Shown: positions 4,225 through 51,212, counted from the first letter of the stretch. The stretch is DNA of 64,000 nt from Candidatus Bathyarchaeota archaeon (GCA_963807605.1 CAWECG010000003.1:448377-512376); one strand, 5' to 3'. Notes: generated from the sequence alone by a model not told the origin. Made by a program: numbers and translations.

Positions 4225-5571
4225 CTCACCAACGATTTACGATACGGGAAGCAGAATAACCGCTGAGAGCAAAACTATCCCACAAAACCGTTATCCCTTC
4301 AAAACATTATGTCATGAAGTTAGTTAAGAGCCATCATATAAAACCATTGTCACCTAGGCGTCTCGAACTCGGTTACACTAGACTCCTCCGGTCGTCCTCT
4401 TGACCGCAAAATTAACTAACCGTCTGGTTTTCATGCTCGCATTTCGATTTGCAGATTTACAGACTAATGAAAATCGATCTCTCTTGGTAAGACCTTGATC
4501 TAAACCTTCTTGACTATGGATATCATAGTAAGTCAGCAGAAAGATGGAGCAACGGTAACAGTCGATTCAAAGCCCAAAGTCTGGTATAATCTTTCTGGAT
4601 CGGAACGGGCTAAAAGAAACGCAGAGGCTCTACTTGACGAATTAGATAAACAAGTATGATGAAGGCCCATCCCACAATCCCCCTCTACAGAATGCTATCG
4701 TCGGTTCTGTCAAGTCTACGTCGGTTGACAGATGCTGTAAAAATACGTCGGGTGGCGATGGGTGTTGCACCCGAAAGGGCTCTGTTAAGTTGGCGGTTGC
4801 CTGTTCAGGCTGTTAAGTTTCGGTTGATGGCAAAGGGTTAATTTCTTCGATTGGACAAATATTTTGTCTCTTCTTGCACCAAGCTTTTCCCTCTTCCGCT
4901 AGTTTTTTCTGCACTTCAAATGATAAACCAGCCAATACGGGTATCTCTAAACTTGGGCATGACACTTCAGGTATTAATGAACCTCTGACCTCCTTTCTCG
5001 GTTTCTCGACCCGCCTGTATTTTCCATCTGACCCTTTCCTTTGTGTTATGACAAGCTCATCTGGGTCAAAGAATTTTGTTGTTATTTCATCTACCCCAGT
5101 TATTGGGCAAATTTTCCTGATAATTTTAGCAAATTTTTCTGTTGATTTAAGCCCATAGCGAATTTTACCCATTACTCATTCCCCCCATATTCTTTGGTTC
5201 TGTTAAGTCTTCATAATGGAAGCTTTAATCCTTGAAGCTTCATCCTCTTATCTAAGTATTCTAGGTTAGGTTTGAATTTTGCATCCGTCGCAAGAGTACA
5301 AAACTTCGAATGGTTGGCTAGTTATGATAAGGCTAGAAATAGGCAAACTTGTGCGTCTAAAAACATATACCGACACTGACGAGCCAATCTATTGGGCCAA
5401 CAATCAAAGAGTTTTCCGATTGAAGAAAGCCTAGTTTGGCTCTATGTAGTCTGCGTCGGATCGATTGGGCTGTAAAAAATCGTCGGATAGAGTCACATTT
5501 CTTATGGTAGATAGTTTATGGCAGATTCGTGAACAAAGTCGGTTGAGATGTAGACCCTTAGTTATTGGCTT

Positions 5572-9953: not shown

Positions 9954-11070
9954 GCGCGCGGGGTTGTCCCGTTATTAGCGTTTTCATGTTAGGTTTGTCC
10001 AGTAGGTTATGCTTCTGGTTTTGGTGGGTTGTTTGGTGTTGTGTGAGGCTTCTATGGTGTAGAGGAGGCATAGTATGCAGTAGCTGATGTGGATGGTGAT
10101 GTTTTCTAGTCCTCGTGTCTTGTGGTTGTTGAGGTTGAGGTGTTCTTTGAGTGATGCGAAGACCAACTCGATGATGGAGCGTTTATTGTAGATGTGTTTG
10201 AGGTTTTCTGGGCCGTGTGTTTTGAAGTCGCTGGTTACTCTGAGGATGTTTTGTCTTTCAGGTTTCTGGTTGGCTGGGTAGGGTATCGCGGTCTTGATTC
10301 TGTGTTTTTTAGCGGTCTCTCTGAGTCTGTTGCTGGAGTATTGACTGTCAGCGGTTAGCTGTCGGATTCTGGTTGCTGTGGTTTTAACTGTCATTTTGAG
10401 GAGTGGTATGCTCGGTTTCTTCTCGTTAGTGTTTGCTGGTGTCACTAGGAATGTTAGGGGTGTGGCTGTGTCTGTATCGACTGTTAGGTGTAGTTTGTAG
10501 CCTAACCCGTATGTGCGGTAGGCTCTTCCTACACGTGCTTGAGGGTCACTGAAGCCTGTTCTATTGTTTATGTTTCGTCTGCTGTAGGCTTTGATGAAGG
10601 TGGCGTCCATAGCAACTATTCTTGGTGTTACATAGCGCTTCTTCAGTAATTTCTTGACCTGTTTGTTTACTATGCGTCTTAGTCTTCTTGTTCCTAGTCG
10701 CTGGTTGAATCTTGAGAGTACCGTCCTACCGTAGGCTGGCTCCTCATATCTTATGTCGCATATGTCACGTAGCCGCTCATCGATCCATAAGCGACGTTCA
10801 AGCTCACGCAGACTGTTTATTCTGAGGTAGCGTCTGGCAAGGTGTGCCTTGAAGAGTCCTAGAGGGTTACGTGGAGGTTTACCTGGACCTTCTTGATGAT
10901 AGCAACTAACAACTAGACGTTCAACAAATGATAAATCCAGATTACTCAGCAGTGACTCCAGAGTCTCGTACCCTTCTATCTGGAATCTCCTCCAAGTAGA
11001 AGGGTGCGGGGCTCAACCCTTATGGATCTTTCCGTGTCAACTCAAAGAATATCGGGACAACCCTGCGCGC
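9954..11070 (-). mobile_element. insertion sequence (~1.1 kb) with 23-bp terminal inverted repeats; IS4/IS5-superfamily DDE transposase
   Basis: Left end 9954-9976 'gcgcgcggggttgtcccgttatt'. The reverse complement of 11048-11070 is 'gcgcgcagggttgtcccgatatt' (21/23 identical). The single internal ORF is a DDE transposase. Flanks are ..caga| and |taga.., suggesting a short AGA-type target duplication. Confidence 0.65.
9984..10988 (-). CDS. IS4/IS5-family DDE transposase (no canonical start codon upstream of Met-126; possibly inactive)
   Basis: The ATG-initiated part (9984..10610) begins MDATFIKAYSRR.., typical of DDE_Tnp_1. The same frame stays open upstream to a TGA at ~10989 and encodes the usual N-terminal region (..GKPPRNPLGLFKAHLARRYL..), but with no ATG/GTG/TTG. 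Confidence 0.6.
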   Translation of the reverse strand, partial: RFQIEGYETLESLLSNLDLSFVERLVVSCYHQEGPGKPPRNPLGLFKAHLARRYLRINSLRELERRLWIDERLRDICDIRYEEPAYGRTVLSRFNQRLGTRRLRRIVNKQVKKLLKKRYVTPRIVAMDATFIKAYSRRNINNRTGFSDPQARVGRAYRTYGLGYKLHLTVDTDTATPLTFLVTPANTNEKKPSIPLLKMTVKTTATRIRQLTADSQYSSNRLRETAKKHRIKTAIPYPANQKPERQNILRVTSDFKTHGPENLKHIYNKRSIIELVFASLKEHLNLNNHKTRGLENITIHISYCILCLLYTIEASHNTKQPTKTRSITYWTNLT

Positions 11071-37680: not shown

Positions 37681-37910
37681 TCCAATAGGCATATTACGTA
37701 GCGTTTTGTTAACTTAGTCTAGCTTGGCTCGCGCGCGCTGTGGTCCGGATATCAAGTCAACCAGAAGGGAATCTGTCAGGCGATCGCTTTGAATAAGTGA
37801 GATCGTGGATTACATGAGGCATAAGTTGATGTCCGCGCCTCAACTGCCCAAGTTTATTTTTATATTTTGGATGCTATACTGACCAGTTAAGCGAATCGAA
37901 GGCAAATAGT

Positions 37911-38258
37911 ATGGGGCATGACATAAGAGAGGTAGAGTCTGGAGACCTGGTGGCTAAGAAGGCACTGCTGGCTGACTTGGTAGTCTATCAAAAGGGGTCT
38001 GTGGTAAGCAGGACAATAATCGACAAGGATTCGGGAACAGTGACACTATTCGCTTTCGATCAAGACCAAGGATTAAGTGAACACACGGCGCCGTTTGATG
38101 CTCTGATCAACATTCTTGATGGTGAGGCTGAAGTCATCATTTCTAGTAAAGCCTATCGTTTAAAGGAAGGCGAAATGATCATCATGCCCGCCAATGAGCC
38201 ACATGCACTAAGAGCCGCAAAGAAATTCAAAATGATATTGACTATGATAAGGTCTTGA
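37911..38258 (+). CDS. cupin-domain protein
   Basis: 115-aa small cupin barrel (GTVTLFAFDQDQGLSEHTAPFDALINILDGEAEVII ... MPANEPHAL). Confidence 0.6.
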   Translation: MGHDIREVESGDLVAKKALLADLVVYQKGSVVSRTIIDKDSGTVTLFAFDQDQGLSEHTAPFDALINILDGEAEVIISSKAYRLKEGEMIIMPANEPHALRAAKKFKMILTMIRS

Positions 38259-38318: not shown

Positions 38319-38849
38319 ATGTCTCGGATCTCATTCAGAGCCGCTTCGATTGTAAGAGGCATAACACGCGCGCTAACACAATTATACATATTAAACATTT
38401 CTTGGCAGTACTATAATTTGGAGAAGATCAATTTGCCATCTGAAGGTGTCTGCAGGTTCAGCGTATCGGCTCCTAGAAGCCTTGTTGAAGAATTTGACTC
38501 TGTCATCAAGAAGATAGGTTACGATAGGTCAAAAGCGATCCAAGCTGCAATGCGTATATTCCTAAACGATTACAAATGGACACATGACGTTGGAGGCAAT
38601 ATAGCTGGAGGTCTCGTAATGATCTACGACCACGAGATTCAAGGTTTGGAAGAAGACCTGACGGATGTCCAACACCGCTACCAGAACATAATCAGTTCGA
38701 CCACACATGTACATCTCGATGAACGTCACTGCCTTGAGATAATCCCGCTTAAAGGAGAGGCAAAACTCGCCAAGAAGCTGTCTGAGGAGATCATGACGAA
38801 AAGGGGAGTCAAACAGAGCAGGTTAGTGGCGATTACACAATCAACCTGA
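38319..38849 (+). CDS. nikR: nickel-responsive regulator NikR (RHH plus ACT-like Ni-binding domain)
   Basis: Collinear with NikR: an RHH domain (RFSVSAPRSLVEEFDSVIKKIGYDRSKAIQAAMRIFL) and the Ni site HVHLDERHC (H-x-H-x5-C). The likely real start is the TTG at 38433, as the track N-terminal extension has no counterpart. A TATA-like 'ctataatt' lies at 38412-38419. Confidence 0.85.
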   Translation: MSRISFRAASIVRGITRALTQLYILNISWQYYNLEKINLPSEGVCRFSVSAPRSLVEEFDSVIKKIGYDRSKAIQAAMRIFLNDYKWTHDVGGNIAGGLVMIYDHEIQGLEEDLTDVQHRYQNIISSTTHVHLDERHCLEIIPLKGEAKLAKKLSEEIMTKRGVKQSRLVAITQST

Positions 38850-38901
38850 TCTTCTTTATGTCGTGCGCGTCAAAGCGTCGAATGGAGCGCATGTATTTCT
38901 G

Positions 38902-39723
38902 TTATTTGTGAGAGCTGATTCTTCTCAACTTGGCGGCTCTATTGGCGATAAGAATTGCCACGACGCCTGCCGCCACACCTCCATCAATATTGACGACAGC
39001 TAGCCCTAAGGAACAAGCCTGAAGCATCGCGGTCAAGGCGCCAACGCCCTTTTCTCCAAATCCATATCCAACTGAGGTTGGAACGCCGATTACTGGAATA
39101 TCCACCAAACCTGACACAACCGATGGTAGCGCCCCCTCTCGTCCAGCAACCACGATTATCGCATCAACGTCTTTCTCTATGATTTCTTTTAGTGGAGAGA
39201 ATAGTCTATGAAGTCCAGCGATGCCTACATCATAGGCCGTTAGGACTTCGCAGCCCATCTCCTCAGCAAGGATCCTTGCCTCTTCGGCGACGGGAATGTC
39301 TGCCGTTCCTGCGGCTAGGACTCCGATCTTGCCACCGGTTTTCTCAATTCGAAAGTTCTTCTTCTTTATAGCAACCATGCCGGCTTTCTGATTCACCGTT
39401 AGAATGAAGTCGTTTGGAACCGCGGCCTTGAGGTTTTCAATCTGCTTCTCATTGGCTCGGCTGATTATCACTCTTCCTTTGTCCATCATCTTTAACGCTA
39501 TTTCTAGAAGATCCTCGGGTGTCTTCCCTTCGGCTAGGATAATTTCGGGAATTCCCTTTCTAATCTCTCGATTAACATCCAACCTGGCAACATCACTAAC
39601 TGTATCAATAGCTTGCACTCGAAGGAGTTTTTCAGCATCGTCTAATGAGATCAACCCCTTCGAAAGTCTCTCCAAGATTTCTCTCAACGGTGACCCACCG
39701 ACTATGACTCTCAAATCAAACAT
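38902..39723 (-). CDS. larB: nickel-pincer cofactor biosynthesis protein LarB (PurE-like pyridinium-3,5-biscarboxylic acid mononucleotide synthase)
   Basis: 273 aa with a C-terminal PurE-fold region (IGVLAAGTADIPVAEEARILAEEMGCEV...AIIVVAGREGALPSVVSGL) and an N-terminal extension typical of LarB. Confidence 0.75.
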   Translation of the reverse strand: MFDLRVIVGGSPLREILERLSKGLISLDDAEKLLRVQAIDTVSDVARLDVNREIRKGIPEIILAEGKTPEDLLEIALKMMDKGRVIISRANEKQIENLKAAVPNDFILTVNQKAGMVAIKKKNFRIEKTGGKIGVLAAGTADIPVAEEARILAEEMGCEVLTAYDVGIAGLHRLFSPLKEIIEKDVDAIIVVAGREGALPSVVSGLVDIPVIGVPTSVGYGFGEKGVGALTAMLQACSLGLAVVNIDGGVAAGVVAILIANRAAKLRRISSHK

Positions 39724-39842
39724 GTAGCCATATTTTATCTTTGAGAATGAACCCCGCTCGACTGGTAAGCCCTTGACTTATTACAATTGAGGGTAAATCT
39801 TACAGTTATTTCCGATCTATGCGCCCAATGTGAGTATAGTAT

Positions 39843-40751
39843 TCAAGTGCGATCGGTAGGTAGCTTTTTGTCTCTATTCTTCAATGCGACTCTAGGCACT
39901 ATCTTTTTCTCTAGAGCCTCATCCATGCTCCCGCTTCGGTAGCCAAGAAGATCTATGGTCACATACAGAAATCCTAACCTTTTGAGTTTCATTGCCAAGG
40001 ACTCCATCAATTCCTCGTCGAAAAAGAGTCTGCGCTCATTTTTCCCAACCTCTATGCGCGCCAAATTCCCGTGGTCACGTATTCGAAGCTCCCTGACTCC
40101 AGTCATTTTTCTCAGGAGCTTCTCGGCTTCAGCTACCCTTCTTATCTTGTCCTCAGTTATCTCCTGGCCATAGGGAAACCTAGAGGATAGACATGCCATG
40201 GAGGGTTTGTCTGCGGTGACTAGGCCAAACATCTTGGCAAGGGCTCTGACTTCAGTCTTCTTAATGCCTGCGTCAGCGAGCGGGCTGAATACCCCGCCCT
40301 CAAAAAGCGCTAAGGCTCCTGGCCTGTGGACTTTCATGTCATCAGCGTTTGTCCCATCAACTATGCATGCGATCCCATGTTCCTCCGCTATCTGCTTTAG
40401 TCTCGCGATTAGTTCCTTTTTGCAGTAGTAGCATCTGTCTGGTGGATTCCTGACGAAGTTTGGATTAGTAGTTTCGTCAACTTTTATCGTTATGTGTCTT
40501 ATTCCAATTTCTTTGGCAATACCCTTCGCCTCTTCGAGTTCTCCGTAGGGTAGAGTCGTCGAATTGGCTGTCACCGCGATGGCTTTATTTCCGACAGCCA
40601 TCTTGGCGATTAATGCAACCAGAGAACTGTCAACTCCCCCAGACATGGCAACTAGTACGCTGCCTTCGTTTCTTAGCTTATCCAGTACCCTGTTCATCTT
40701 CTTTGTCAACATCTTTCGTTGATTCAATTGTGTTACGCCAGTTTTCCCCAT
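39843..40751 (-). CDS. larE: ATP-dependent sacrificial sulfur transferase LarE (PP-loop ATPase)
   Basis: PP-loop SGGVDSS. Catalytic-Cys region SMACLSSRFPYGQEIT matches LarE (ASCSVSSRFPYGTTLT in the Lactobacillus plantarum LarE), as does LRIRDHGNLARIEV. Confidence 0.85.
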   Translation of the reverse strand: MGKTGVTQLNQRKMLTKKMNRVLDKLRNEGSVLVAMSGGVDSSLVALIAKMAVGNKAIAVTANSTTLPYGELEEAKGIAKEIGIRHITIKVDETTNPNFVRNPPDRCYYCKKELIARLKQIAEEHGIACIVDGTNADDMKVHRPGALALFEGGVFSPLADAGIKKTEVRALAKMFGLVTADKPSMACLSSRFPYGQEITEDKIRRVAEAEKLLRKMTGVRELRIRDHGNLARIEVGKNERRLFFDEELMESLAMKLKRLGFLYVTIDLLGYRSGSMDEALEKKIVPRVALKNRDKKLPTDRT

Positions 40752-41177
40752 TGGTTCTCACTGCCTCAAGTTTGGAGTCATTACTGTTCCTGTGAATTCT
40801 TCTTTTCCAAGCATGGCGTACGAGTTGCGTACAAGCCATGCGAGGTCATTGATACTGAAGGGATTTGACGTTTGAAGGAATCTGGAGTATGCTCGTAACC
40901 AGACAAACCTGCCTAAATTTCTGTGTAAAAGACTGATACTCCGTGTATTATTTCTGTGTCCTAAGAAGGGGCGCTCGAACGTATTATCTTAGCTCGCGAC
41001 AAGAGCAGCAAATGCAAACTACTTCTAATTAACCTATCGTTTAACCACGTGATGCATAGAGATGGATCTTGCGGGGTTTCACACTGGTGGATTGAGTTCG
41101 CGCTTCTATTCGGGCAAATGCAAAGAATTCTTTATTATGAGCTGTGGAAAGAAATGATGATAGAAGCCAATGGATGA

Positions 41178-41663
41178 GTGTTCAGTATGGAGAGGCAGGT
41201 TAAGGTCGGAGATAAGGCTCCAGATTTTACGCTATTCGACACTGAATTAAAGCCCAGGAGTCTCAAGGATTTCAAAGGAAATGTCGTGCTAGCCTTTTAC
41301 CCTGGAGCATTCACCAACACCTGCACAAAGGAGATGTGCGCCTTCAGAGATTCTCTTACGAGGCTAAGCGGTCTTAAAGCTCAGGTTGTTGGAATAAGCG
41401 TCAACGATCCATTCTCTAACAAAGCATTTGCCGAGGCAAATGGGCTGACTTTCCCATTGTTAAGCGACTACAATCGAGAAGTTCTTCGGAGATACGGTGT
41501 TATGGTGAACGACTTTGCCGGTCTTAAAGGCTACAGTGCTGCCAAACGTTCCGTCTTCATCATAGACACGAAGGGAATAGTGTGTTACAGATGGGTGACT
41601 GAAAACCCAGGAATAGAACCTAATTATGGCGAGATAGAAAAGGCGTTAGAGGAAATAAAGTAG
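41178..41663 (+). CDS. peroxiredoxin, Bcp/PrxQ type
   Basis: 161 aa with [17 protein letters not shown], i.e. the peroxidatic Cys in PxxxTxxC and a resolving Cys five residues later, the Bcp arrangement. Confidence 0.8.
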
Positions 41664-41744
41664 AGGCTTATCGCGCCTCTTAACTATCTTATTGTGCCTC
41701 CGATTCTTCGCTTCTACCTTTGTCTAAACGTTCCTTGTCGAATA

Positions 41745-43685
41745 TTATGTGAAACTCTCTTTCCGAGTTTCTTTGACGTAGTTTATCAGTCCACCTGCGA
41801 GCAGGATACGCCTCTCCCTTTTCGAAAAAGTGTTAAGGCACTCCATTCGCCTTCCTTCTATCTCTATCAGTATTTTTTGAGATTCATGTGTGATCTGATC
41901 TTTGACATTCTGGATTTGGATAATGTCCCCATAGTTTATTCTACCGTAGTCTTCTGGCTCTGCAAAAATCAGAGGTACCACTCCAAAATTGATTAGGTTA
42001 GTTCTATGTATCCTAGCAAAACTCTTGGCTATTTTGCCCTTCACGCCCAAGTATCGGCATACTAGAGCTGCATGCTCTCGACTCGAACCCTGACCATAAT
42101 TTTCCCCGCCAACAACGAATCCTCCTGCCGACTCCTTAGCTCTCCTTGTGAAAGTAGGGTCTACCTTTTCGAAGGTAAACTCGCTTATAGCAGGGATGTT
42201 GCTTCTGAGCGGCAGGATCTTACTTCCGGCAGGAAGTATGTCGTCTGTGCTGACATTATCTGCAAGTTTGAGCAAGACTCTTCCAGAGAGCCTGTCTTCC
42301 AGAGCTACAAGAGTAGGGAATGGTTTGATGTTGGGTCCTCTGAAAACCTCAACGGCTCTCTTGTGCTGCACAGGTGGAATTACTGACTCTTCATTTACAA
42401 CATAGCGTGTAGGTTCAACTATCTCTGGATATTCTCCCAAAGTCCTTGGATCTGTTATCTTCCCGTTTATGGCAGCTGCCACCGCGACTTCAGGGCTGCA
42501 TAGATAGACCTTATCATCTTTTGTCCCACTTCTACCAGGAAAGTTTCTTGGGAAAGTCCTTAGCGAGACCGTTCCAGTAGCAGGGGCCTGCCCGATTCCT
42601 ATACACCCAAGACAGCCCAGTTGGTGGATACGTGCACCAGAACGAATCAGCTGGGTTAGACCGCTTGCATCACCTAAGTTCTCTATAATCTGTCGGCTTC
42701 CCGGGTTTACTTCGAAACTGATGTCTTCATGAATCTTCCTGCCTTCCATTGCCTTTGCGATGATCATCAAATCTCTGAAAGAGGAGTTTGTGCATGAGCC
42801 GACTATAACCTGTGCGACCTTGATTCCCTCGACCTCTTTTACCCTCCGGACATTGTCAGGAGAGGAGGGGCAAGATATGAGAGGTTCTAGCTCGCTCAAA
42901 TCCAATTCTGCATGTTCATCATATTCTGTGTCAGAGTCAGCCTGGATCCTCTGCCAAGCCTCACCTCTATCTTGAGCTTCAAGGAATCTCTTGGTGTTAT
43001 CATCTGAAGGGAATACGGTAGAGGTCGCGCCCAACTCTGCTCCCATATTGGCAATAGTTGCCCTCTCAGGCGTAGCCAGAGTCTCGACGCCTGGTCCATA
43101 ATACTCTATGATCTTTCCGAGGCCGCCTTTGACGGAGTATCTTCTGAGCATCTCAAGTATGACGTCTTTGGCTGAAACCCAAGGTCTGAGTCGGCCTGTT
43201 AACTTCACTCCAAAGATGCTCGGTACCTTAAGATAGAAAGGTTCACCAGCCATAGCCATCGCGACATCCAAGCCACCTGCGCCGATGGCGAGCATCCCGC
43301 ATCCTCCGGAGGTTGGAGTGTGGCTGTCAGAGCCCAGAAGCGTCTTGCCGGGAACTGCGAAGCGTTCAAGATGGATATGATGTGAAATTCCATTGCCGGG
43401 TTTGGAGAAGTAGACGCCGAACTTCTTGGCGGTGGTCTGAAGGAATAAGTGGTCATCCATATTTCGGAAATCTGTCTGCAAGAGGTTGTGGTCGACATAG
43501 CTTACTGAGAGTTCCGTCTTCACATGCGGAATGCCGAGAGCTTCAAATTCTATGAAGGCAAGGGTACCTGTTGCATCTTGGGTAAGTGTTTGATCGATTC
43601 TTACTGCTATCTCTTCCCCAGGTTCAAATCGGCCTTCGACCAAGTGGTTCTCAATTATCTTTTGAGCTACACTCTTGCCCATCAA
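41745..43685 (-). CDS. aconitase-family hydratase (fused large plus swivel domains)
   Basis: 646 aa with the aconitase signatures GSDSHTPTSGG and cluster-ligand Cys regions (IVGSCTNSS, CLGCIGIG), and a C-terminal swivel domain (..GENYGQGSSREHAAL). Confidence 0.8.
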   Translation of the reverse strand: MMGKSVAQKIIENHLVEGRFEPGEEIAVRIDQTLTQDATGTLAFIEFEALGIPHVKTELSVSYVDHNLLQTDFRNMDDHLFLQTTAKKFGVYFSKPGNGISHHIHLERFAVPGKTLLGSDSHTPTSGGCGMLAIGAGGLDVAMAMAGEPFYLKVPSIFGVKLTGRLRPWVSAKDVILEMLRRYSVKGGLGKIIEYYGPGVETLATPERATIANMGAELGATSTVFPSDDNTKRFLEAQDRGEAWQRIQADSDTEYDEHAELDLSELEPLISCPSSPDNVRRVKEVEGIKVAQVIVGSCTNSSFRDLMIIAKAMEGRKIHEDISFEVNPGSRQIIENLGDASGLTQLIRSGARIHQLGCLGCIGIGQAPATGTVSLRTFPRNFPGRSGTKDDKVYLCSPEVAVAAAINGKITDPRTLGEYPEIVEPTRYVVNEESVIPPVQHKRAVEVFRGPNIKPFPTLVALEDRLSGRVLLKLADNVSTDDILPAGSKILPLRSNIPAISEFTFEKVDPTFTRRAKESAGGFVVGGENYGQGSSREHAALVCRYLGVKGKIAKSFARIHRTNLINFGVVPLIFAEPEDYGRINYGDIIQIQNVKDQITHESQKILIEIEGRRMECLNTFSKRERRILLAGGLINYVKETRKESFT

Positions 43686-43980
43686 TAATCAAACCTTGCT
43701 TCTGTCTATGTGATATTGCGATCTTGAATTAGCTGGACGCTGAGACTTGGACCGGGCATCATGATAGGTTATTGCAGCAAGCCTTGAAGGGCCTATGTCT
43801 GCCCCAGCGGCGAAATAAAAGATTTGCTTCAAAGATGATATGCGTGGAACAGTTCATCATTATCATCATGATGATTTCCTGACCTTAAATAAGTGATATT
43901 AAGATACAGTCAAACAGCATTTCACTATCATCAATGGATTTGGAAAGACCGACAAAATTATGGTAGGTAAGATTCCGGCT

Positions 43981-44297
43981 TCACAAACGGACGATTGTTT
44001 TTGAGATGTAGCTCATGACAGAAGCGTGCGCGCTTGCGTCTCTATAGTGGTATTGAACGTCAGTGAGTGCTTCTTGGACTCCGTGGGATCGGTGGTCATA
44101 GGTTAACAGAACCGCGCATGCTTCAAGTTTGTTTTCTCTCCTTTCCATGTATAGTCTGTGATGAAGTTGCGCATGGCAACCTGCAACCCTTTCGATCGGT
44201 CTTTGTATCCTATTGCCCTGAGCGAATCATCAAATTGCTTCATCAACTTTGGAGGCGTAGAGAAGCTAAACTTGTCCACCTTCACCAAGAACGGCAC
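43981..44297 (-). pseudogene. nikR paralog disrupted by a frameshift (RHH intact; C-terminal domain out of frame)
   Basis: The track ORF 44103..44297 encodes only the RHH (FSFSTPPKLMKQFDDSLRAIGYKDRSKGLQVAMRNFI). The -1 frame continues VLLTYDHRSHGVQEALTDVQYHYRD, matching the NikR YDH..LTDVQ.RY block. The shift is at a gg/ggg run in 'gcgcggttctg'. The far C-terminus diverges further. Confidence 0.5.
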
Positions 44298-44459
44298 ACC
44301 TCCCCTCCAAGTGCAACTTTCAACATATCACAATTTCGTCTTTCAGCTTCTGATATGATAACCTATCCAGCGGATCAAGTGATTATCGGGCATCCGCACC
44401 ATCCTAAAAGTTTATTAGAGTAACACTAATCAGCGAAATCGTAATACTGGTGACTTACC

Positions 44460-45233
44460 GTGCATATTCCGGATGGATATCTAGGGCCTTCAACGTTCAT
44501 TTTCTTCTACATATTCATGATCCCGTTATGGTTCGTAGCGTCTAGGAAAGTGGAGAAAAATCTCAAGACCAAGGAAATACCTTGGCTTGCTTTTGGAGTG
44601 GCCTTCTCATTCGTGATAATGATGTTCAACTTTCCCGCGCCTGGAGGAACAACGGGGCACGCGGTTGGGGCGGCTATCCTTGCATTAACCTTGGGGCCTT
44701 GGTTCGGGTTTCTGGGTGTTACAGGTGCGCTGCTAATTCAATGCCTCTTGTTTGGAGACGGAGGAATAACCACTTTCGCTGCTAACTCGTTCAACATGGG
44801 GCTAGTCATGTCCTTTGTCAGCTACTATGTCTACAAGTTGCTGGCTACTCGTGCTTCCGTTTTGTCGCGTCGGCGTTGGTTGGCGGCTGCGACATCCGGA
44901 TATGTTGGACTAAACGCCGCGGCTCTGTGCTGTGCGATAGAATTAGGTCTTCAGCCTCTACTGTACTACACTGCGAACGGCAGCCCTCTCTACGCTCCTT
45001 TCCCGCTATCTGTAACGATTCCCGCCATGTTGATTTCTCACATGTTTATTTTCGGGTTTGTCGACGCGGCTGCAACTGGTTTCTTGGTTTCCTACATAAT
45101 TCGTTCCGACCCATCAATGTTAGCACCTTCAATGGCGCAAAGCATTCCGGGCAGCCCGGTGGTGAATGAGCAGTCTCCAGCGCCAAAGCGTCAATTTTCA
45201 GAAGACTGTGGATGCTCCTCGCCGTTTTGGTAG
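44460..45233 (+). CDS. cbiM: ECF-type Ni/Co transporter substrate-capture component CbiM/NikM
   Basis: The N-terminus MHIPDGYL (the metal-ligating N-terminal His) and 6-7 TM helices. The C-terminal ~30 aa of the ORF overlap cbiN and are probably not real. Confidence 0.8.
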   Translation: MHIPDGYLGPSTFIFFYIFMIPLWFVASRKVEKNLKTKEIPWLAFGVAFSFVIMMFNFPAPGGTTGHAVGAAILALTLGPWFGFLGVTGALLIQCLLFGDGGITTFAANSFNMGLVMSFVSYYVYKLLATRASVLSRRRWLAAATSGYVGLNAAALCCAIELGLQPLLYYTANGSPLYAPFPLSVTIPAMLISHMFIFGFVDAAATGFLVSYIIRSDPSMLAPSMAQSIPGSPVVNEQSPAPKRQFSEDCGCSSPFW

Positions 45234-45532
45234 TACTGGTTCCCGTGGGTCTGTTGGCTCCGGGATCGGCGTTTGCCGAATGGAGTGCTTCCGAGCTGGA
45301 AACACTATTTGGGATCACGCCTCCTGCAGGGCTCACCAGCTTGGAAGGATTATACAATGCTCCTTTGAGTGGCTACAGCGTGCCTGGAGCAACGACCTTC
45401 ACCCAACTTAGCCTGGCGTATATCCTCGCAGCCGCCATTGGGGTATCTATTTTCGGTTTGTGTCTTTTCGCGTTCTACCGAGTTAAATCAAGAGCTATCG
45501 TCTCAGATGCTGTACCTCCAGAAGAGGCGTGA
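45212..45532 (+). CDS. cbiN: CbiN/NikN small membrane component
   Basis: 106 aa with two terminal TM helices flanking an extracytoplasmic loop, as in CbiN. Position is between cbiM and cbiQ. Confidence 0.55.
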   Translation: MLLAVLVVLVPVGLLAPGSAFAEWSASELETLFGITPPAGLTSLEGLYNAPLSGYSVPGATTFTQLSLAYILAAAIGVSIFGLCLFAFYRVKSRAIVSDAVPPEEA

Positions 45533-45538
45533 TTTCAG

Positions 45539-46483
45539 ATGCTTCCTGAATGGCTCAGTCAGAGACCAACCGTCGGCGCTTGTCCCTGCTGCACCGTAGG
45601 AGGGCCTAGCAAGAAGAGCATTGTGGATAGAACCATAGGAGCCTTCTCAGGTTTCTTCGATGAATCCAGCTTCGCTGAAGGCTATGCATGCAAGGGAGGG
45701 CTACTGCAATTCGTTGACCCGCGTTTCAAGCTGGTCGGGATGCTTTGGCTTGTCGTTTGTGTTATCCTTGTGAGTCGCGTGGAATGGGTTCTTGTTATTC
45801 TTGGGGTTGCTATTCTTCTTGCTGTTGCCTCGAAAGTGAGGCTGGGTTACTACCTGAAGAGAGTTTGGCTCTTCATCCCGCTATTCACATTGGTCATTGC
45901 TGTGCCGGCTATGTTCAACTTCATCGTTCCCGGGCAACCTCTTTTCGTACTGCTAAGTAAGGGTCAGCCCCTTGGTCCTCTTGTTTTTCCGTGGACGATT
46001 TCAATCACGGTTCCTGGCCTTCAAGGGGCCGTCCTCTTTGTCTTGAGGACAGGAGCTGCCGTTTCCTTTGTGATCCTACTCGCTTTGACCACCCGCTGGA
46101 CTGACCTGCTAGCATCTCTTCAAAGTCTGAGGGTTCCAAAGGCCTTCGTGATGATACTCGGCATGACTTACAGGTATGTGTTCGTCCTAGTGGGCATTGC
46201 ACAAGACATGTCCTTTGCCCTAAAGAGCAGAACACTGAACCCCGAACGTAGTGCGAATGTGAGAGAGTGGTTGGGTGCAACGATTGGAGTGCTTTTCCGT
46301 CGGTCAATGAATATGAGTGAGCTTGTTAATTTGTCAATGATTTCACGTGGTTATGATGGGAGAGCCAGAAAGGTTACTGAATTCCGCGCTGAACCGTTTG
46401 ACTGGGCTTTCTTGGGATTTCTCCTTGGACTAGGCGTATTACTACTAATGCTTCGCAATATCGCCGTGTTGAATGGGATTTGA
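45539..46483 (+). CDS. cbiQ: ECF transporter transmembrane (T) component CbiQ
   Basis: Polytopic protein with the conserved cytoplasmic coupling region (ALKSRTLNPERSANVREW). It carries a ~50-aa N-terminal extension with CPCC. Confidence 0.7.
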   Translation: MLPEWLSQRPTVGACPCCTVGGPSKKSIVDRTIGAFSGFFDESSFAEGYACKGGLLQFVDPRFKLVGMLWLVVCVILVSRVEWVLVILGVAILLAVASKVRLGYYLKRVWLFIPLFTLVIAVPAMFNFIVPGQPLFVLLSKGQPLGPLVFPWTISITVPGLQGAVLFVLRTGAAVSFVILLALTTRWTDLLASLQSLRVPKAFVMILGMTYRYVFVLVGIAQDMSFALKSRTLNPERSANVREWLGATIGVLFRRSMNMSELVNLSMISRGYDGRARKVTEFRAEPFDWAFLGFLLGLGVLLLMLRNIAVLNGI

Positions 46484-46524
46484 AATGACTCAAAGATAGT
46501 GGGCTCGTCTTCGAGCTACAGAAT

Positions 46525-47301
46525 GTGGGCTATTCATACTCTGGCAATCATTCCGCCCTGAGTGACGTATCGATGAACGTTAAAGCTGGGGAGTCAATCG
46601 CCATTCTCGGAGCGAATGGCTCAGGGAAATCGACGCTCCTCAAAATATTATGCGGTCTAATCTTCCCCTCGTCAGGAACCGTCAAAGCGTTTGGGTCTAC
46701 ATTAAGTGAAGCGGGAATGGAGTTGAACAGAAGTGAATTCGCCCGCTACTTCAGACGAAGGGTGGGAATGGTGTTTCAAGATGCTGATTCTCAGCTATTC
46801 TCGCCCGTGGTCTGGGAAGAAGTGTCATTCGCTCCTCTGCAACTTGGCCTGTCTCAACAGAACGTGGAGAAACGGGTGAATGAAGCGCTTTCTCTCTTGA
46901 GAATTCAGCATCTCAGAAATCGTAGCCCACAGAGCTTGAGTGAGGGCGAAAAGCGGAAAGTGTCTTTAGCGTCCGTTCTTTCATTGGGTCCCGACATTCT
47001 CCTGCTCGATGAGCCCAGCTCAGATCTCGACCCCCGCACTAAAGTCTGGCTAGAAGGATTTCTCAATGAATTGCATGATAGCGGCAAGACAGTCATTATG
47101 GCTACTCACGATCTTGAACTTGCAGCCGACACGTCAAACCGCTGTATCATCCTTGACGAGCAACACAGCATTGCAGGCGAGGGACCAACAGAAGAAATGC
47201 TAGGGAACTGGGATCTTCTGTTGAATGCTAACCTAGTGCACGTTCATGCGCACAAACACGGACAAGTTCTTCACATCCATCCGCATGCCCACTCGGAATG
47301 A
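46525..47301 (+). CDS. cbiO: ECF transporter ATPase CbiO with His-rich C-terminal tail
   Basis: Walker A (GANGSGKST), ABC signature (LSEGEKRKVSLA), Walker B (LLLDEP). The C-terminus is HVHAHKHGQVLHIHPHAHSE. Confidence 0.85.
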   Translation: MGYSYSGNHSALSDVSMNVKAGESIAILGANGSGKSTLLKILCGLIFPSSGTVKAFGSTLSEAGMELNRSEFARYFRRRVGMVFQDADSQLFSPVVWEEVSFAPLQLGLSQQNVEKRVNEALSLLRIQHLRNRSPQSLSEGEKRKVSLASVLSLGPDILLLDEPSSDLDPRTKVWLEGFLNELHDSGKTVIMATHDLELAADTSNRCIILDEQHSIAGEGPTEEMLGNWDLLLNANLVHVHAHKHGQVLHIHPHAHSE

Positions 47302-47475
47302 AATTCAGGCCATTTCGATTCCCAAGCCGAATCTCGTTCGATCCCGTTTGCCATTCACTATTTCAAGAAAACTCAGTCCAAACCATGAAAGGTCTGCAAG
47401 TCGTAGACTAACGATTGCTTTGTCGGGTAATCAGCGAAATCATGCAGAAAGCCAACGGAGGGCTCTAGCCTGACA

Positions 47476-49251: not shown

Positions 49252-49902
49252 TTGAGTGGTGCTCTCACACTCATTCTCGTGTCTTTTGACAAGATACTCT
49301 GGTTATCCTCGACTTTCAACGCTGTTGCGCTCTTAGTTTTCGCTATTATAGATCTGCTTCTGGGCGTTATCCTCTTCATTCGGCCTTACACGTACATCTT
49401 CATCCTTGTAACGGTCTGGAGTATTGTGCGAATCGCAATATGGTTCGGCGTCATTGTACAAGGTCCAAATTATGGGCTGACGTACGCTCAGTTCGCCGAC
49501 TACCTTTTCAACCCTATCGCCGTTAACCCGCCGAACCCTCCAGGCGTACCCGGTATTCTGACTGACCCAATCATAGTCTTAGAGATACTAGTTATCATCT
49601 TTGCACTGCTGGGTTACCATGCATATTCACACCTGACGCCTTTCCTCGGCTACATTCCGCTTCCCAGTTTTGCCGGTTATCCACCAGTTATAGGACCTGC
49701 ACCGTTCCCGAGGTTTCCACCAAGATTCGCGCCAAGCGCACCACTAGCTTTTGGACGGTCGCCTTATTATGGAGCACAACGATGGGGCGTTCCACATGCG
49801 TACGAGACTTGCAGGTATTGTGGGCAACAATTGATAGCCAGTGCTGACCGACACATGGATTATTGTCCCTACTGTAACAGGCATCAATGGCATCATGTCT
49901 AG
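49252..49902 (+). CDS. Pro-rich polytopic membrane protein with C-terminal zinc ribbon
   Basis: 216 aa with four or more TM helices, a Pro-rich segment (PPVIGPAPFPRFPPRFAPSAP) and a C-terminal CRYCG..x12..CPYC. Confidence 0.45.
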   Translation: MSGALTLILVSFDKILWLSSTFNAVALLVFAIIDLLLGVILFIRPYTYIFILVTVWSIVRIAIWFGVIVQGPNYGLTYAQFADYLFNPIAVNPPNPPGVPGILTDPIIVLEILVIIFALLGYHAYSHLTPFLGYIPLPSFAGYPPVIGPAPFPRFPPRFAPSAPLAFGRSPYYGAQRWGVPHAYETCRYCGQQLIASADRHMDYCPYCNRHQWHHV

Positions 49903-50060: not shown

Positions 50061-51212
50061 CTATGGTTCGCCGACTATCTTGAAAGTTACGGGATATCTT
50101 GCCACATCGTTCCTTATGACCTTAGCCTTGTGTTTGAAAACAAGACCTTGAGTGTCACGCGAGAACATTTGACTTGTAATAACGACCGCTGATATTGTGG
50201 AGTTCTTGCTCAGTACCCGTTTGACCATAGTGTCAAGCCTCCTGAAGTCTTCATCCATCATTTGGCGATCTATGCTGTTCAGATCCACGTAGATCATACC
50301 GGGCTTATTTCCGCTCAACTGCTTCTTTGCCTTAGTTATGGACTCGATGACGCTCTTTATGCGATCGGGCATAATTGCACACTTGAAACCAAAAATCCTC
50401 GGATTTCTAATTACAGGTTGATCCTCTTTCTTTTCCATAGCGAAAACAAAAAAGTCCAGTTCTTCTGTCGACGCAAATTCCATCGAGTGAGATGTGATTG
50501 GGAGGTCATACTGCGAAAGTATCTTCACGGTTATTTCGATACCTTTCTCAGGAAACGCGAAGCGTCCTTGTTGTTTGCTCTTCATGAAACGTCTGAGCTC
50601 ATGAAGAATGAATTCAACATTCTCTTGCGTTGGATCACGTTGGGTCTTGACAACGAAGCCATAATTACACTTTAAATGATTCATGATAGCGGAGGCCTTC
50701 TGCATGATAAGCTTCCAGTACCCGTGGTTCCGCCTATCTCTTTGTGACAGTTTATCTTTTTGCTTGCATTCAACTTCTACCTGTTCGTCAATTTCCATTT
50801 CTGCCGTTTTGATCTTTTCGTCAGGTTTCTCCTTCAAGAATGCGACCTTATAATTCGCTCTTGCGTATGCCGATGCAACTTGCAGTTCATACACAGTCTT
50901 CTCAAATAGCTCTGATGAAACCGTGAGATTGCGTATTTTGCAGTCTAGTCGTTTTACGCTATTCTGACGAAGTATCGACAAACTCTCGCCGAGATGAGCC
51001 AATCGCATCATTTCTTCTGTCACATTCTCATTCGCGCCAGAGACTTCTAGCTGCTTATCCACTTGATGAATAAGGACTGCGAGTGGGTGATACCGATCTG
51101 TATAGTCGACGAAGGTCAGCCTTGTCTTGTCTTTTGGCGGAGCGTAAGACTTGATTTTCTGAAGCTCACTACTCAACCAATCACGGTCAATTACGCCTTT
51201 CACTTCGGACAC
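50061..51212 (-). CDS. hypothetical protein (383 aa), possible PD-(D/E)xK-like core
   Basis: No recognisable family. The segment ..YELQVASAYARANYKVAFLKE..EMEIDEQVEVECKQ has a D ... E-x-K pattern with strand-like hydrophobic context. Weak evidence. Confidence 0.35.
   Translation of the reverse strand: MSEVKGVIDRDWLSSELQKIKSYAPPKDKTRLTFVDYTDRYHPLAVLIHQVDKQLEVSGANENVTEEMMRLAHLGESLSILRQNSVKRLDCKIRNLTVSSELFEKTVYELQVASAYARANYKVAFLKEKPDEKIKTAEMEIDEQVEVECKQKDKLSQRDRRNHGYWKLIMQKASAIMNHLKCNYGFVVKTQRDPTQENVEFILHELRRFMKSKQQGRFAFPEKGIEITVKILSQYDLPITSHSMEFASTEELDFFVFAMEKKEDQPVIRNPRIFGFKCAIMPDRIKSVIESITKAKKQLSGNKPGMIYVDLNSIDRQMMDEDFRRLDTMVKRVLSKNSTISAVVITSQMFSRDTQGLVFKHKAKVIRNDVARYPVTFKIVGEP

Follow-up and report, generated by a model that had tools for sequence, protein, structure and literature searches.

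A rearranged nickel gene cluster in a Bathyarchaeota genome: one NikR sensor, larB and larE, and a putative nickel importer

Nickel-pincer loci and the archaeal cluster

The genes larABCDE and larR of L. plantarum lie beside nickel ABC/ECF transporter genes, in adjacent clusters (PMC10250755). The canonical cluster of Bathyarchaeia and Thermofilaceae is arranged as larE-larC, larB, with larC between larE and larB (L006, L009, L015, L026, L028, and L077, for example), and often includes nikR and cbiMNQO; one or both are present in the lar cluster of eight loci. We compared these systems with a 64-kb stretch of the genome of a Candidatus Bathyarchaeota archaeon, which is called the window throughout, and with 80 LarB loci; loci of relatives are designated L001, L082, L083, and so on.

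The cluster in the window is a reshuffled version of a common Bathyarchaeia gene cluster, not a new system. It holds one intact nickel sensor (NikR1), two of the three nickel-pincer cofactor genes, and a putative nickel importer together with the remnant of its own dead sensor. Profile models above their curated cut-offs identify NikR1, LarB, LarE, a broken second nikR, and a Cbi/Nik M-N-Q-O ECF transporter, so that the genes listed in a preliminary description of this DNA are all present and their identities hold. Our preferred reading, which we consider likely, is that of a Bathyarchaeia nickel-economy cluster made of known parts and reshaped by rearrangements, with one regulator and one transporter left after reciprocal loss.

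As in the lar locus of L. plantarum, the cofactor genes of the window lie close to a regulator gene and to genes for an ECF-type importer, probably dedicated to nickel; LarB is homologous and retains the active-site cysteine, and LarE has the same PP-loop fold. Unlike it, the window lacks larA, larC, and larD, its regulator is the nickel sensor NikR and not the lactate-responsive LarR, its LarE is of the CxxC...C [4Fe-4S] type instead of the sacrificial single-Cys type, and the host is an archaeon. With the canonical cluster of Bathyarchaeia and Thermofilaceae it shares the same families (LarB 61-70% identical, LarE up to 68%) and the same operator before the transporter. It differs in that larC is missing, larE and larB are co-directional, the adjacent transporter has been deleted, and a second transporter module with a truncated nikR has been gained 4 kb off. 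The cofactor genes and their surroundings are as follows:

37911-38258, + strand: small cupin of 115 aa (Cupin_2, 36.4 bits), context; conserved neighbour of nikR1 in the window and L082, dN/dS 0.12
38433-38849, + strand: nikR1, intact nickel-responsive ribbon-helix-helix repressor, 138 aa from a TTG, in an ORF open from 38319
38902-39723, - strand: larB, NaAD carboxylase/hydrolase, first step of nickel-pincer nucleotide synthesis (NF033503, 243 bits against a cut-off of 175)
39843-40751, - strand: larE, PP-loop sulfur insertase (TIGR00268, 297.5 bits against 150)
41178-41663, + strand: peroxiredoxin (AhpC-TSA, 129 bits), context; the slot holds a Dps-like gene in L003 and L047
41745-43685, - strand: aconitate hydratase, Acn (NF005558, 957 bits), context

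Synteny in L003, L047, and L082 makes Acn-X-larE-larB a conserved block of the window's clade, with larE 119 bp upstream of larB in the same direction. In L. plantarum LarB, Cys221 is the active-site cysteine, which attacks C4 of the pyridinium ring. The L. plantarum structures 8soq and 7mj0 are the best solved relatives of the window's LarB (E=4e-44), and their MLNSCA aligns with its MLQACS, Cys on Cys, the active-site residue being conserved. LarE matches the LarE structures 5udq and 6b2o (E ~1e-46), to which its SGGVDS, CYYC, and MAC motifs align; CYYC sits where L. plantarum has W..A, and MAC-L is shifted by one residue relative to AS-C-S. LarE enzymes that depend on [4Fe-4S] are recognised by a CxxC and a distant Cys one residue past the position of L. 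plantarum Cys176 (PMC9283937), and the window's LarE is, by motif, of this non-sacrificial CxxC...C type. It had been proposed that the two proteins might turn out to be a PurE/PurK-type and a QueC or tRNA-thiolation enzyme; their LarB and LarE equivalog scores are far above those for PurE, QueC, and MnmA, the assignments to PurE (TIGR01162, 40 bits against 149.6) and QueC (28 bits against 150) being rejected. In the pathway, LarB converts NaAD to P2CMN and a LarE of the [4Fe-4S] type thiolates P2CMN to P2TMN; the genes for these first two steps are both present. Both genes appear to be in use, because they are under purifying selection (dN/dS 0.15 for larE and for larB; compare 0.20 for nikR1 against L082, 0.18 for acn, and 0.14 for porB).

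The nickel sensor, its broken paralogue, and the rearrangements

In E. coli NikR, the high-affinity nickel site is made of H76, H87, H89, and C95. The corresponding pattern H-x10-H-x-H-x5-C is present in NikR1 with exact spacing (VQH...THVHLDERHC) and is conserved in the aligned NikRs of six other loci. Read from 38319, the ORF scores 140.5 bits with NF002169 (cut-off 111) and 95.6 with NikR_C (PF08753; cut-off 22); with NF003381, NikR1 scores 115 (cut-off 105). NikR1 has an N-terminal ribbon-helix-helix and a C-terminal, ACT-like NikR_C domain, with scores above curated cut-offs. The family match opens at residue 44, and a start near 38433, at a TTG preceded by GGAG, gives a typical NikR of 138 aa (NF002169, 141.4 bits). 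The family score and the ligand spacing bear out the earlier call of a canonical NikR with an HxH..C nickel site; its supposed head-to-head arrangement with larB was mistaken, the two genes being convergent with stops at 38849 and 38902.

Comparison with relatives reveals two deletions and a junction near the two nikR copies:

37727-37737, no strand: deletion scar with GC-alternating filler CTCGCGCGCGC, from blastn of the window against L082
38364-38373, no strand: deletion scar ACACGCGCGC, where L082 carries 1.3 kb
44024-44033, no strand: rearrangement junction with filler GCGTGCGCGC; L082-like DNA up to 44023, L083-like DNA from 44034
44034-44306, - strand: pseudo-nikR2, recognised by aligning its DNA and protein with those of L083, whose NikR is intact at 141 aa

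The second nikR consists of ORFs in two frames on the - strand, 44103-44297 and 43981-44148, each matching NF002169. Aligned with the L083 gene, its start codon has changed from ATG to AGG, a 1-bp deletion lies near 44131, the nickel-ligand His equivalent to H76 has become Tyr, and the last ~50 codons, with the HxH...C nickel site, are gone at the junction, leaving the 5' two-thirds. By these features the second nikR is a dead pseudogene with neither start codon, reading frame, nor nickel site. A frameshifted copy had been placed at 43981-44297; the copy is real, its extent was not, since positions 43981-44033 of that ORF are read-through into unrelated DNA past the junction and the homologous remnant is 44034-44306 only. 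The junction is also found in an independent short-read contig, L001, which crosses it and is 100% identical to the window from 39335 to 44082.

Alignment with close relatives shows two ancestral nikR-transporter modules. Module 1 is nikR1 with divergent cbiM..O beside the lar genes. In L082, the 1.3 kb at the second scar hold decayed cbiM and cbiO fragments and the left half of the module-1 NikR operator (7852-7879 in L082); in the window the transporter has been cleanly deleted together with half of the operator, of which only the right half-site remains (CTAACAC, 38373-38379). At the first scar, L082 carries a 2.5-kb, four-gene group-4 [NiFe]-hydrogenase module, whose large subunit has the motifs RICGICNTAH and DPCMCCMDR. 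Module 2, a transporter with a divergent nikR, is intact in L083-85; in the window it now lies beside the aconitase gene, and the relocation cut off the nickel-binding half of nikR2. Reciprocal loss would have left one component of each kind, module 1 keeping the regulator and module 2 the transporter.

The importer and its predicted control

44420-44447, + strand: candidate NikR operator GTAACAC-N14-GTAATAC, zero mismatches, 13 nt before the start codon of nikM and immediately past a TATA-like TTTATTA
44460-45233, + strand: nikM (cbiM), S component (CbiM, 184 bits against 23; NF008873, 309 bits)
45212-45532, + strand: nikN-like PDGLE domain as a separate ORF (30.6 bits with PDGLE; in NF005598, a model of the fusion, it corresponds to positions 235-318)
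45539-46483, + strand: nikQ (cbiQ), ECF T component (TIGR02454, 154 bits against 111.8)
46525-47301, + strand: nikO (cbiO), ABC ATPase (ABC_tran, 113.8 bits against 25)

The metal site of TtNikM2 involves the free Met1 amine, His2, and His67, supported by Thr65, Gln94, Gly101/102, and Asn109 (PMC3945884), and the 257-aa NikM of the window, with its MHIPDG N-terminus, has all of these at identical positions, as in TtNikM2 and RcNik(MN)QO. The close relatives L083-85 encode a fused NikMN of 356 aa, a natural M-N fusion like that of R. capsulatus. In contrast to RcNik(MN)QO, the window has lost the fusion to a frameshift, with NikN now starting at a new ATG, and NikO bears a His-rich C-terminal tail (47230-47298), absent from 15 other ABC ATPases of the fetched loci. 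The split results from a 1-bp deletion near 45190, which turns the last ~14 codons of nikM into out-of-frame read-through; the ATG of the NikN ORF is GTA (Val) in the fused relative, a change that needs two substitutions. Of the cbiM-cbiN-cbiQ-cbiO originally described, M, Q, O, and the ECF importer stand, and the presumed cbiN is a NikN-type PDGLE domain separated from the ancestral nikMN fusion. In nikO, a 1-bp insertion near 46492 (an AA/AAA length difference) shifts the ancestral ATG (46486) out of frame, and the ORF restarts at the GTG at 46525, 13 residues shorter than in L083.

The three 1-bp indels within 3.3 kb of the transporter block (near 44131, 45190, and 46492) lie in DNA covered by no independent assembly. 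The one in nikO costs the protein its first 13 residues, so the importer may be impaired or newly dead. Seven neighbouring genes shared with L082 contain no frameshift. There are two other readings of the indels. It is possible, if unlikely, that the nikR2-nikMNQO block is decaying as a whole into pseudogenes, in a strain shedding nickel functions; the [NiFe]-hydrogenase module and the transporter remnant of module 1, present whole or in part in L082, are absent from the window. Yet dN/dS is low in all four transporter genes (nikM 0.12, nikN 0.19, nikQ 0.13, nikO 0.13) with no internal stops, two of the three indels fall in tolerable spots (one in the M-N linker, one at the very 5' end of nikO), and the operator and NikM metal ligands are intact. 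Together, these dN/dS values and the two-substitution ATG that now begins the NikN part argue for retained transporter function. Somewhat more doubtful is that the indels are assembly errors, with nikMN fused and nikO full length as in L083 and only the truncation of nikR2 real. The window comes from one contig of 1.16 Mb that may have been built from long reads, and the nikO indel is of the homopolymer-length kind; but two of the three lie outside homopolymers, the neighbouring genes are free of frameshifts, and an error would hardly account for the GTA-to-ATG change next to the split.

The published metal sites of NikM and CbiM are alike and common to nickel and cobalt systems (PMC3945884), so component names cannot decide between them. 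Curated models call M and Q "cobalt transporter CbiM" and "CbiQ", and a B12-binding-domain protein and a B12-binding radical SAM protein are encoded elsewhere in the window, as would suit a B12-linked cobalt CbiMNQO importer whose association with NikR is incidental. Against this, intact relatives carry a divergent nikR, a NikR operator lies directly upstream of nikM, and the N component is of the PDGLE/NikN type, with no significant match to the CbiN model; the N component of L015, in contrast, does have CbiN matches, all sub-threshold. The operator, the adjacent nikR, and the NikN-type PDGLE favour nickel, and we find a cobalt importer improbable. No cobalamin riboswitch or other Rfam match was found in the window.

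The candidate operator agrees with the published NikR signal, GTGTTAC-N13/14-GTAACAC and the reversed GTAACAC-N13/14-GTGTTAC (PMC545781), and is the sole match in 64 kb with up to one mismatch allowed. Over 1.42 Mb of loci, 11 of the 14 matches of the motif lie directly upstream of cbiM or nikM. Its half-site, 14-nt spacing, position upstream of the nikM operon, and adjacent nikR resemble the predicted delta-proteobacterial NikR regulon of nik(MN)QO (PMC545781), from which it differs in its archaeal promoter, where a TATA-like box closely precedes it, and in a cognate nikR that is dead. A paralogue encoded 5.5 kb away would therefore have to act on the operator, and NikR1 probably represses nikMNQO in trans through this predicted site, since the regulator is what survives of module 1 and the transporter is what survives of module 2. 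NikR1 would be suited to the site: its DNA-reading strand is that of NikR2 (both carry RFSxS, the same R-x-S-x-S), and its module of origin had the same type of operator. Nickel-bound NikR1 would occupy 44420-44447, overlapping the nikM promoter and start region, and switch nickel uptake off.

A different arrangement had been suggested, in which two NikR paralogues exert layered control over both uptake and cofactor synthesis, with operators sought upstream of 44460 and of 39723/39843. An operator does precede nikM; none was found upstream of larE, larB, or nikR1 in the scan of the 64-kb window, where the three-mismatch look-alikes at 38352 and 40730 are no more than chance would supply (50 such sites against 40.6 expected). 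Layered control finds a basis in the two nikR-derived sequences, one of them adjoining larB, and is very improbable: nikR2 has lost its start codon, frame, and nickel site, the lar genes have no operator nearby, and half of the module-1 operator has been deleted. The lar genes are probably not nickel-regulated at this level.

Cofactor genes without larC

The earlier observation that larA and larC are absent from the window is confirmed by HMM, motif, and Pfam scans. An HMM built from 34 neighbouring-locus LarCs, which in the neighbouring lineages were verified by TIGR00299 and NF052512, found no LarC in the six-frame translation of the 64 kb (best E=2.9), and no LarA was found in the window by motif scan or Pfam scans of long ORFs. 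The LarA superfamily is defined by the DUF2088/LarA fold and the cofactor-binding motif HxxAGxSGGxK. A scan for this motif hit only L034, whose protein is LarA-like (NF052593, 360 bits, below the 500-bit cut-off). A LarA homologue lies within 10 kb in just 1 of the 80 LarB loci, so that its absence from 64 kb says little; larBCE without larA is already known in ~15% of genomes (PMC11796402).

The absence of larC is more notable and is clade-specific. LarC is adjacent in 46 of the 80 LarB loci and LarE in 30. A larE-larB pair lacking larC is confined to the window's clade (the window, L001, L082, L002, L003, and L047), in whose available contigs no LarC was found; in 27 of the other 30 larE-linked loci, larC lies between the two genes or next to them. 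The 120 best-ranking relatives of the nearest LarC, and 20 multi-member clusters, include no LarC homologue located on the 1,157,264-bp source contig; this indirect search covered that one contig of the assembly and, apart from ~20 small ones, the LarC clusters. A LarC of this clade is expected to be ~55-62% identical to that of L028 and would therefore fall within those 120.

A complete pathway would require both a LarC, for nickel insertion, and an enzyme using the cofactor to have their genes in other parts of the genome. Of the 34 LarB loci whose 10-kb flanks are complete, 14 lack both larC and larE in the vicinity, so that lar genes are commonly unlinked. The other reading, in our view unlikely, is a true LarB/LarE-only lineage that lost larC altogether and whose cofactor would be P2TMN itself or a derivative that acquires its metal spontaneously or through another insertase. 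The confinement of the larC-free arrangement to one clade, the lack of LarC signal in the 64 kb and in the relatives' contigs, the absence of all 120 LarC relatives from the source contig, and the purifying selection on larB and larE speak for it; the frequency of unlinked loci speaks against it, and a LarC-independent route to the cofactor is not described in the nickel-pincer literature examined. If such a lineage did exist, its cofactor chemistry would differ from the LarBCE paradigm.

The lar genes and their regulator

Every component of the locus falls in a described family. The genes and sites on which the analysis turns are:

38433-38849, plus strand: nikR1, the intact copy of the regulator gene
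44034-44306, minus strand: nikR2, the remnant of a second regulator gene
44420-44447: candidate NikR operator
44460-47301, plus strand: transporter genes nikM-N-Q-O

The assignments made in the preliminary description for NikR, LarB, LarE and the transporter hold, with equivalog scores above the cut-offs. LarB, with 243 bits, passes the cut-off of 175 of its own equivalog model and has 40 bits on PurE; LarE, with 297.5 bits, passes a cut-off of 150, and the QueC and MnmA models give it 24-31 bits. Since the lar scores are far higher, the PurE- and QueC-type identities set beforehand as the alternative are not borne out. Both proteins also match the solved Lactobacillus plantarum structures (LarB with E=4e-44 and the active-site cysteine retained, LarE with E about 1e-46). 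The motifs of LarE include SGGVDS, CYYC at the place of the Lactobacillus W..A, and a third cysteine one residue past the position of the sacrificial Cys176. The CxxC-C signature defines the [4Fe-4S]-dependent, non-sacrificial LarE class (PMC9283937), and by its motif pattern the predicted protein fits this class exactly. On NF002169, with a cut-off of 111, NikR1 scores 140-141 bits; the long ORF matches from its residue 44 onward, and the TTG at 38433, which follows GGAG, gives a protein of 138 aa. The genes larE and larB are co-directional, with 119 bp between them, and nikR1 and larB are convergent, not head-to-head as had been proposed. Judged by their dN/dS of 0.15-0.20, larB, larE and nikR1 are in use, because this constraint is the same as that of aconitase and porB.

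The surroundings are those of an archaeal genome, with A-type ATP synthase subunits, geranylgeranyl reductase, TFE-alpha and pyruvate:ferredoxin oxidoreductase encoded in the window, in which no Rfam families or tRNAs were found. In a contig search, the nearest public LarB loci all came from Candidatus Bathyarchaeia, the top LarB identity being 76%. NikR-controlled ECF nickel uptake beside nickel-pincer cofactor genes is common in Bathyarchaeia, and in L. plantarum the cofactor genes likewise lie beside a nickel ECF importer and a regulator (PMC10250755). The window is thus a rearranged, partly eroded member of a known Bathyarchaeia arrangement. Three features are its own: 1) a reciprocal loss between two regulator-transporter modules; 2) the splitting of nikMN, with a start codon that has newly evolved; and 3) the unlinking (or loss) of larC, which it has in common with its clade.

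Two regulator-transporter modules and an inferred reciprocal loss

In three metagenome contigs with at least 90% protein identity (L083, L084 and L085), an intact nikR of 141 aa diverges from a fused nikMN of 356 aa, a nikQ of 314 aa and a nikO of 271 aa. These contigs align with window 44034-47322 at 90.2% identity. Relative to them, nikR2 has an ATG to AGG change at the start codon, a 1-bp deletion near 44131 and a change of the first nickel-ligand histidine to tyrosine. Homology stops at 44034, and with it the last ~50 codons, which hold the HxH...C nickel site, are lost. To the left of 44023, the window shares 94.5% identity with L082, a close relative that has the acn-prx-larE-larB-nikR1 block. 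The junction is spanned by L001, an independent contig of short reads (run ERR10755942) that matches 39335-44082 at 100% identity. The changes relative to the three contigs, together with the junction crossed by L001, show that nikR2 is a true pseudogene. The second NikR had been described as frameshifted, which is borne out by the deletion; the start codon and the nickel site are lost besides.

The transporter genes differ from the same contigs by two further 1-bp indels, at about 45190 and about 46492. The one in the M-N linker breaks the nikMN fusion in two, and beside it a GTA codon of the relatives has become the ATG that now begins the NikN/PDGLE ORF at 45212. The other, at codon 4-5 of nikO, leaves an ORF that restarts at GTG 46525 and is 13 residues shorter. 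It is possible that the indels at 44131, 45190 and 46492 are assembly errors. A recent inactivation of the importer is possible as well. Yet dN/dS relative to L083 is 0.12-0.19 across nikM, nikN, nikQ and nikO, internal stops are absent, and NikM retains Met1-His2, Thr65, His67, Gln94, Gly101/102 and Asn109, positions that bind nickel in TtNikM2 (PMC3945884). We therefore regard the importer as probably still functional in a split form. The C-terminus of NikO is histidine-rich (NLVHVHAHKHGQVLHIHPHAHSE, window 47230-47298, eight histidines in the final 30 residues). This tail is kept in L083, has no counterpart in the 15 further ABC ATPases that the fetched loci encode, and could serve to bind nickel or hand it off in the cytoplasm. 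Two ORFs near the transporter, of 383 aa (50061-51212) and 216 aa (49252-49902), gave no family matches and have no nickel-related motifs.

Comparison of the cbiM/nikM upstream regions of the relatives yielded a 28-bp operator motif, GTRWYAC-N14-GTRWYAC, an element described, also in reversed form, as the NikR signal of delta-proteobacterial nik(MN)QO operons (PMC545781, 2004 Genome Biology). With at most one mismatch, the window has a single match, GTAACAC-N14-GTAATAC, the candidate operator at 44420-44447, directly past a TATA-like TTTATTA and 13 nt upstream of the nikM start. At the same threshold, 1.42 Mb of fetched loci contain 14 matches, 11 of them directly upstream of cbiM/nikM or a remnant of it. 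The same window scan found no operator upstream of larE, larB or nikR1; look-alikes with three mismatches near the lar genes and nikR1 are in no excess over chance, and a generic inverted-repeat search near the lar genes gave nothing above chance. Of the operator sites that the preliminary description suggested looking for, the one upstream of the nikM start at 44460 was thus found, whereas those upstream of larB (39723) and larE were not. Two Baldrarchaeota loci have the operator next to a gene for a ~480-aa KaiC/RecA-like ATPase (L008 5405-5432, L013 11687-11714), which is divergent from cbiM in L013 and has no cbiM nearby in L008; this hints that the ATPase may belong to the NikR regulon there.

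On the L082 contig, remains of a different cbiM..cbiO operon lie divergent to nikR1, and a full operator (L082 7852-7879) separates the two. This 1.3 kb is missing from the window, where a 10-base filler (38364-38373) and only the right half-site are left. Because remnants of this first module persist in L082 and the second module is intact in L083-L085, the lineage had two nikR-transporter modules. The first, beside the lar genes as in the locus L006, retained its regulator and lost its transporter; the second retained its transporter and lost its regulator. NikR1 and NikR2 have an identical R-F-S-x-S DNA-reading strand, and the operator type is common to both modules. The simplest working model from these shared features is that Ni-NikR1 would repress nikM-N-Q-O in trans. 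The locus offers a clean natural case of reciprocal loss after duplication, with the sensor left in one module and the transporter in the other, and such a loss predicts cross-regulation.

Losses, insertions and GC-rich filler in the flanks

Between porB and a cupin gene, L082 carries a four-gene group-4 [NiFe]-hydrogenase-like module (L082 9849-12286) encoding a small subunit, a 30-kDa subunit, a large subunit (RICGICNTAH, DPCMCCMDR) and a ferredoxin. Its flanks are 94-96% identical to the window, and the module is precisely missing at 37727-37737, which implies that the window strain lost a nickel enzyme besides one nickel importer. The block aconitase-X-larE-larB (aconitase and X at window 41178-43685) is conserved in the window, L003, L047 and L082. 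X is an oxidative-stress protein of varying identity: the window and L082 have a peroxiredoxin, encoded on the opposite strand, and L003 and L047 have a Dps-like ferritin. The larE-prx intergenic region has a window-specific 177-bp insertion relative to L082, within 40811-41013, of which there are no copies elsewhere in the window or the fetched loci. At its left edge the insertion supplies part of an interrupted palindrome of 7+5 bp, GCATGGCGTACG...CGTACAAGCCATGC (40811-40841; GCATGGC...GCCATGC), and so completes it.

An alternating-GC filler (GCGCGC/GCGCGCGC) occurs at every indel or rearrangement junction that separates the window from its close relatives (37727-37737, 38364-38373, 44024-44033), and in the reverse case GCGCGCGC lies in L082 (about 5390-5395) where the window has the 177 extra bp. 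The hexamer GCGCGC also borders, on either side, an IS that encodes a DDE_Tnp_1 transposase (9954-11070; inverted repeats GGGGTTGTCCCG / CGGGACAACCC). The 8-mer GCGCGCGC is found at six sites (29238, 34414, 37731, 49912, 51444, 60122) against about 0.6 expected, and all six are between ORFs treated as genes. The filler may stem from this IS family, as its target duplication or its footprint, in which case the family would be implicated in the deletions behind the present form of the nickel locus.

Whereabouts of larC and users of the cofactor

Among the window ORFs of at least 110 aa that were taken as genes, a Pfam scan detected neither hydrogenase, CODH or urease nor hyp, larA or larC, in keeping with the earlier statement that larA and larC are absent from the window. 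For larA this means little, because a LarA homologue lies near larB in only one of 80 LarB loci; LarA homologues are known from about 30% of archaeal species (PMC11770544), and larBCE without larA from about 15% of genomes (PMC11796402). Within the fetched flanks of the 80 loci, larC is present in 46 and larE in 30. Among these 30 larE-linked loci, larC accompanies 27, mostly between larE and larB, and the other three (L002, L003, L047) are the closest relatives of the window. These three, the window, L001 and L082 make up the only group in the set with larE-larB and no larC.

The gene may simply have become unlinked and be encoded elsewhere in the genome, as lar genes often lie apart: of the 34 LarB loci with complete flanks, 14 lack both larC and larE in the vicinity. 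However, a LarC of this clade is expected, by calibration, to be 55-62% identical to that of L028, the locus with the nearest LarC, and hence to fall among the best 120 relatives listed in a homologue search with it, which reach down to about 53% identity. No LarC from the source contig (1,157,264 bp) is among these 120 or the members of 20 multi-member clusters. The contig contexts of three listed relatives (P0156, P0006, P0090) and the cluster of a fourth (P0002) represent other lineages and have the canonical larB / larC-larE arrangement. For the source contig, the search is no more than suggestive of a loss of larC. That larC is wholly lost from the clade (the window, L082, L002, L003 and L047), with larB and an Fe-S LarE retained under purifying selection, seems to us unlikely.

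Other lineages place further genes near larB. Methanobacterium loci (L042, L045, L052, L055 and others) have larB without larC or larE, adjoining hypF, a [NiFe]-hydrogenase maturation gene; this is a nickel-themed setting of another kind, and a ~770-aa HypF-like cluster, annotated from N-terminal sequence only, is common to 12 loci. In one Bathyarchaeia lineage (L090-L093), a 414-aa DUF362 protein is encoded ~3 kb from larB / larC-larE (e.g., L090 13244-14488). DUF362 and the N-terminal domain of LarA belong to a common Pfam clan (PMC11770544), which makes this protein a possible non-LarA user of the cofactor.

Should the clade of the window have wholly lost larC, pyridinium-3,5-bisthiocarboxylate mononucleotide would be metallated by a non-LarC route or used without nickel, and the cofactor would be passed to a protein other than LarA. 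If larC is truly absent, these archaea would be suited to seeking an alternative nickel-insertion step, and also the long-sought non-LarA users of the cofactor.
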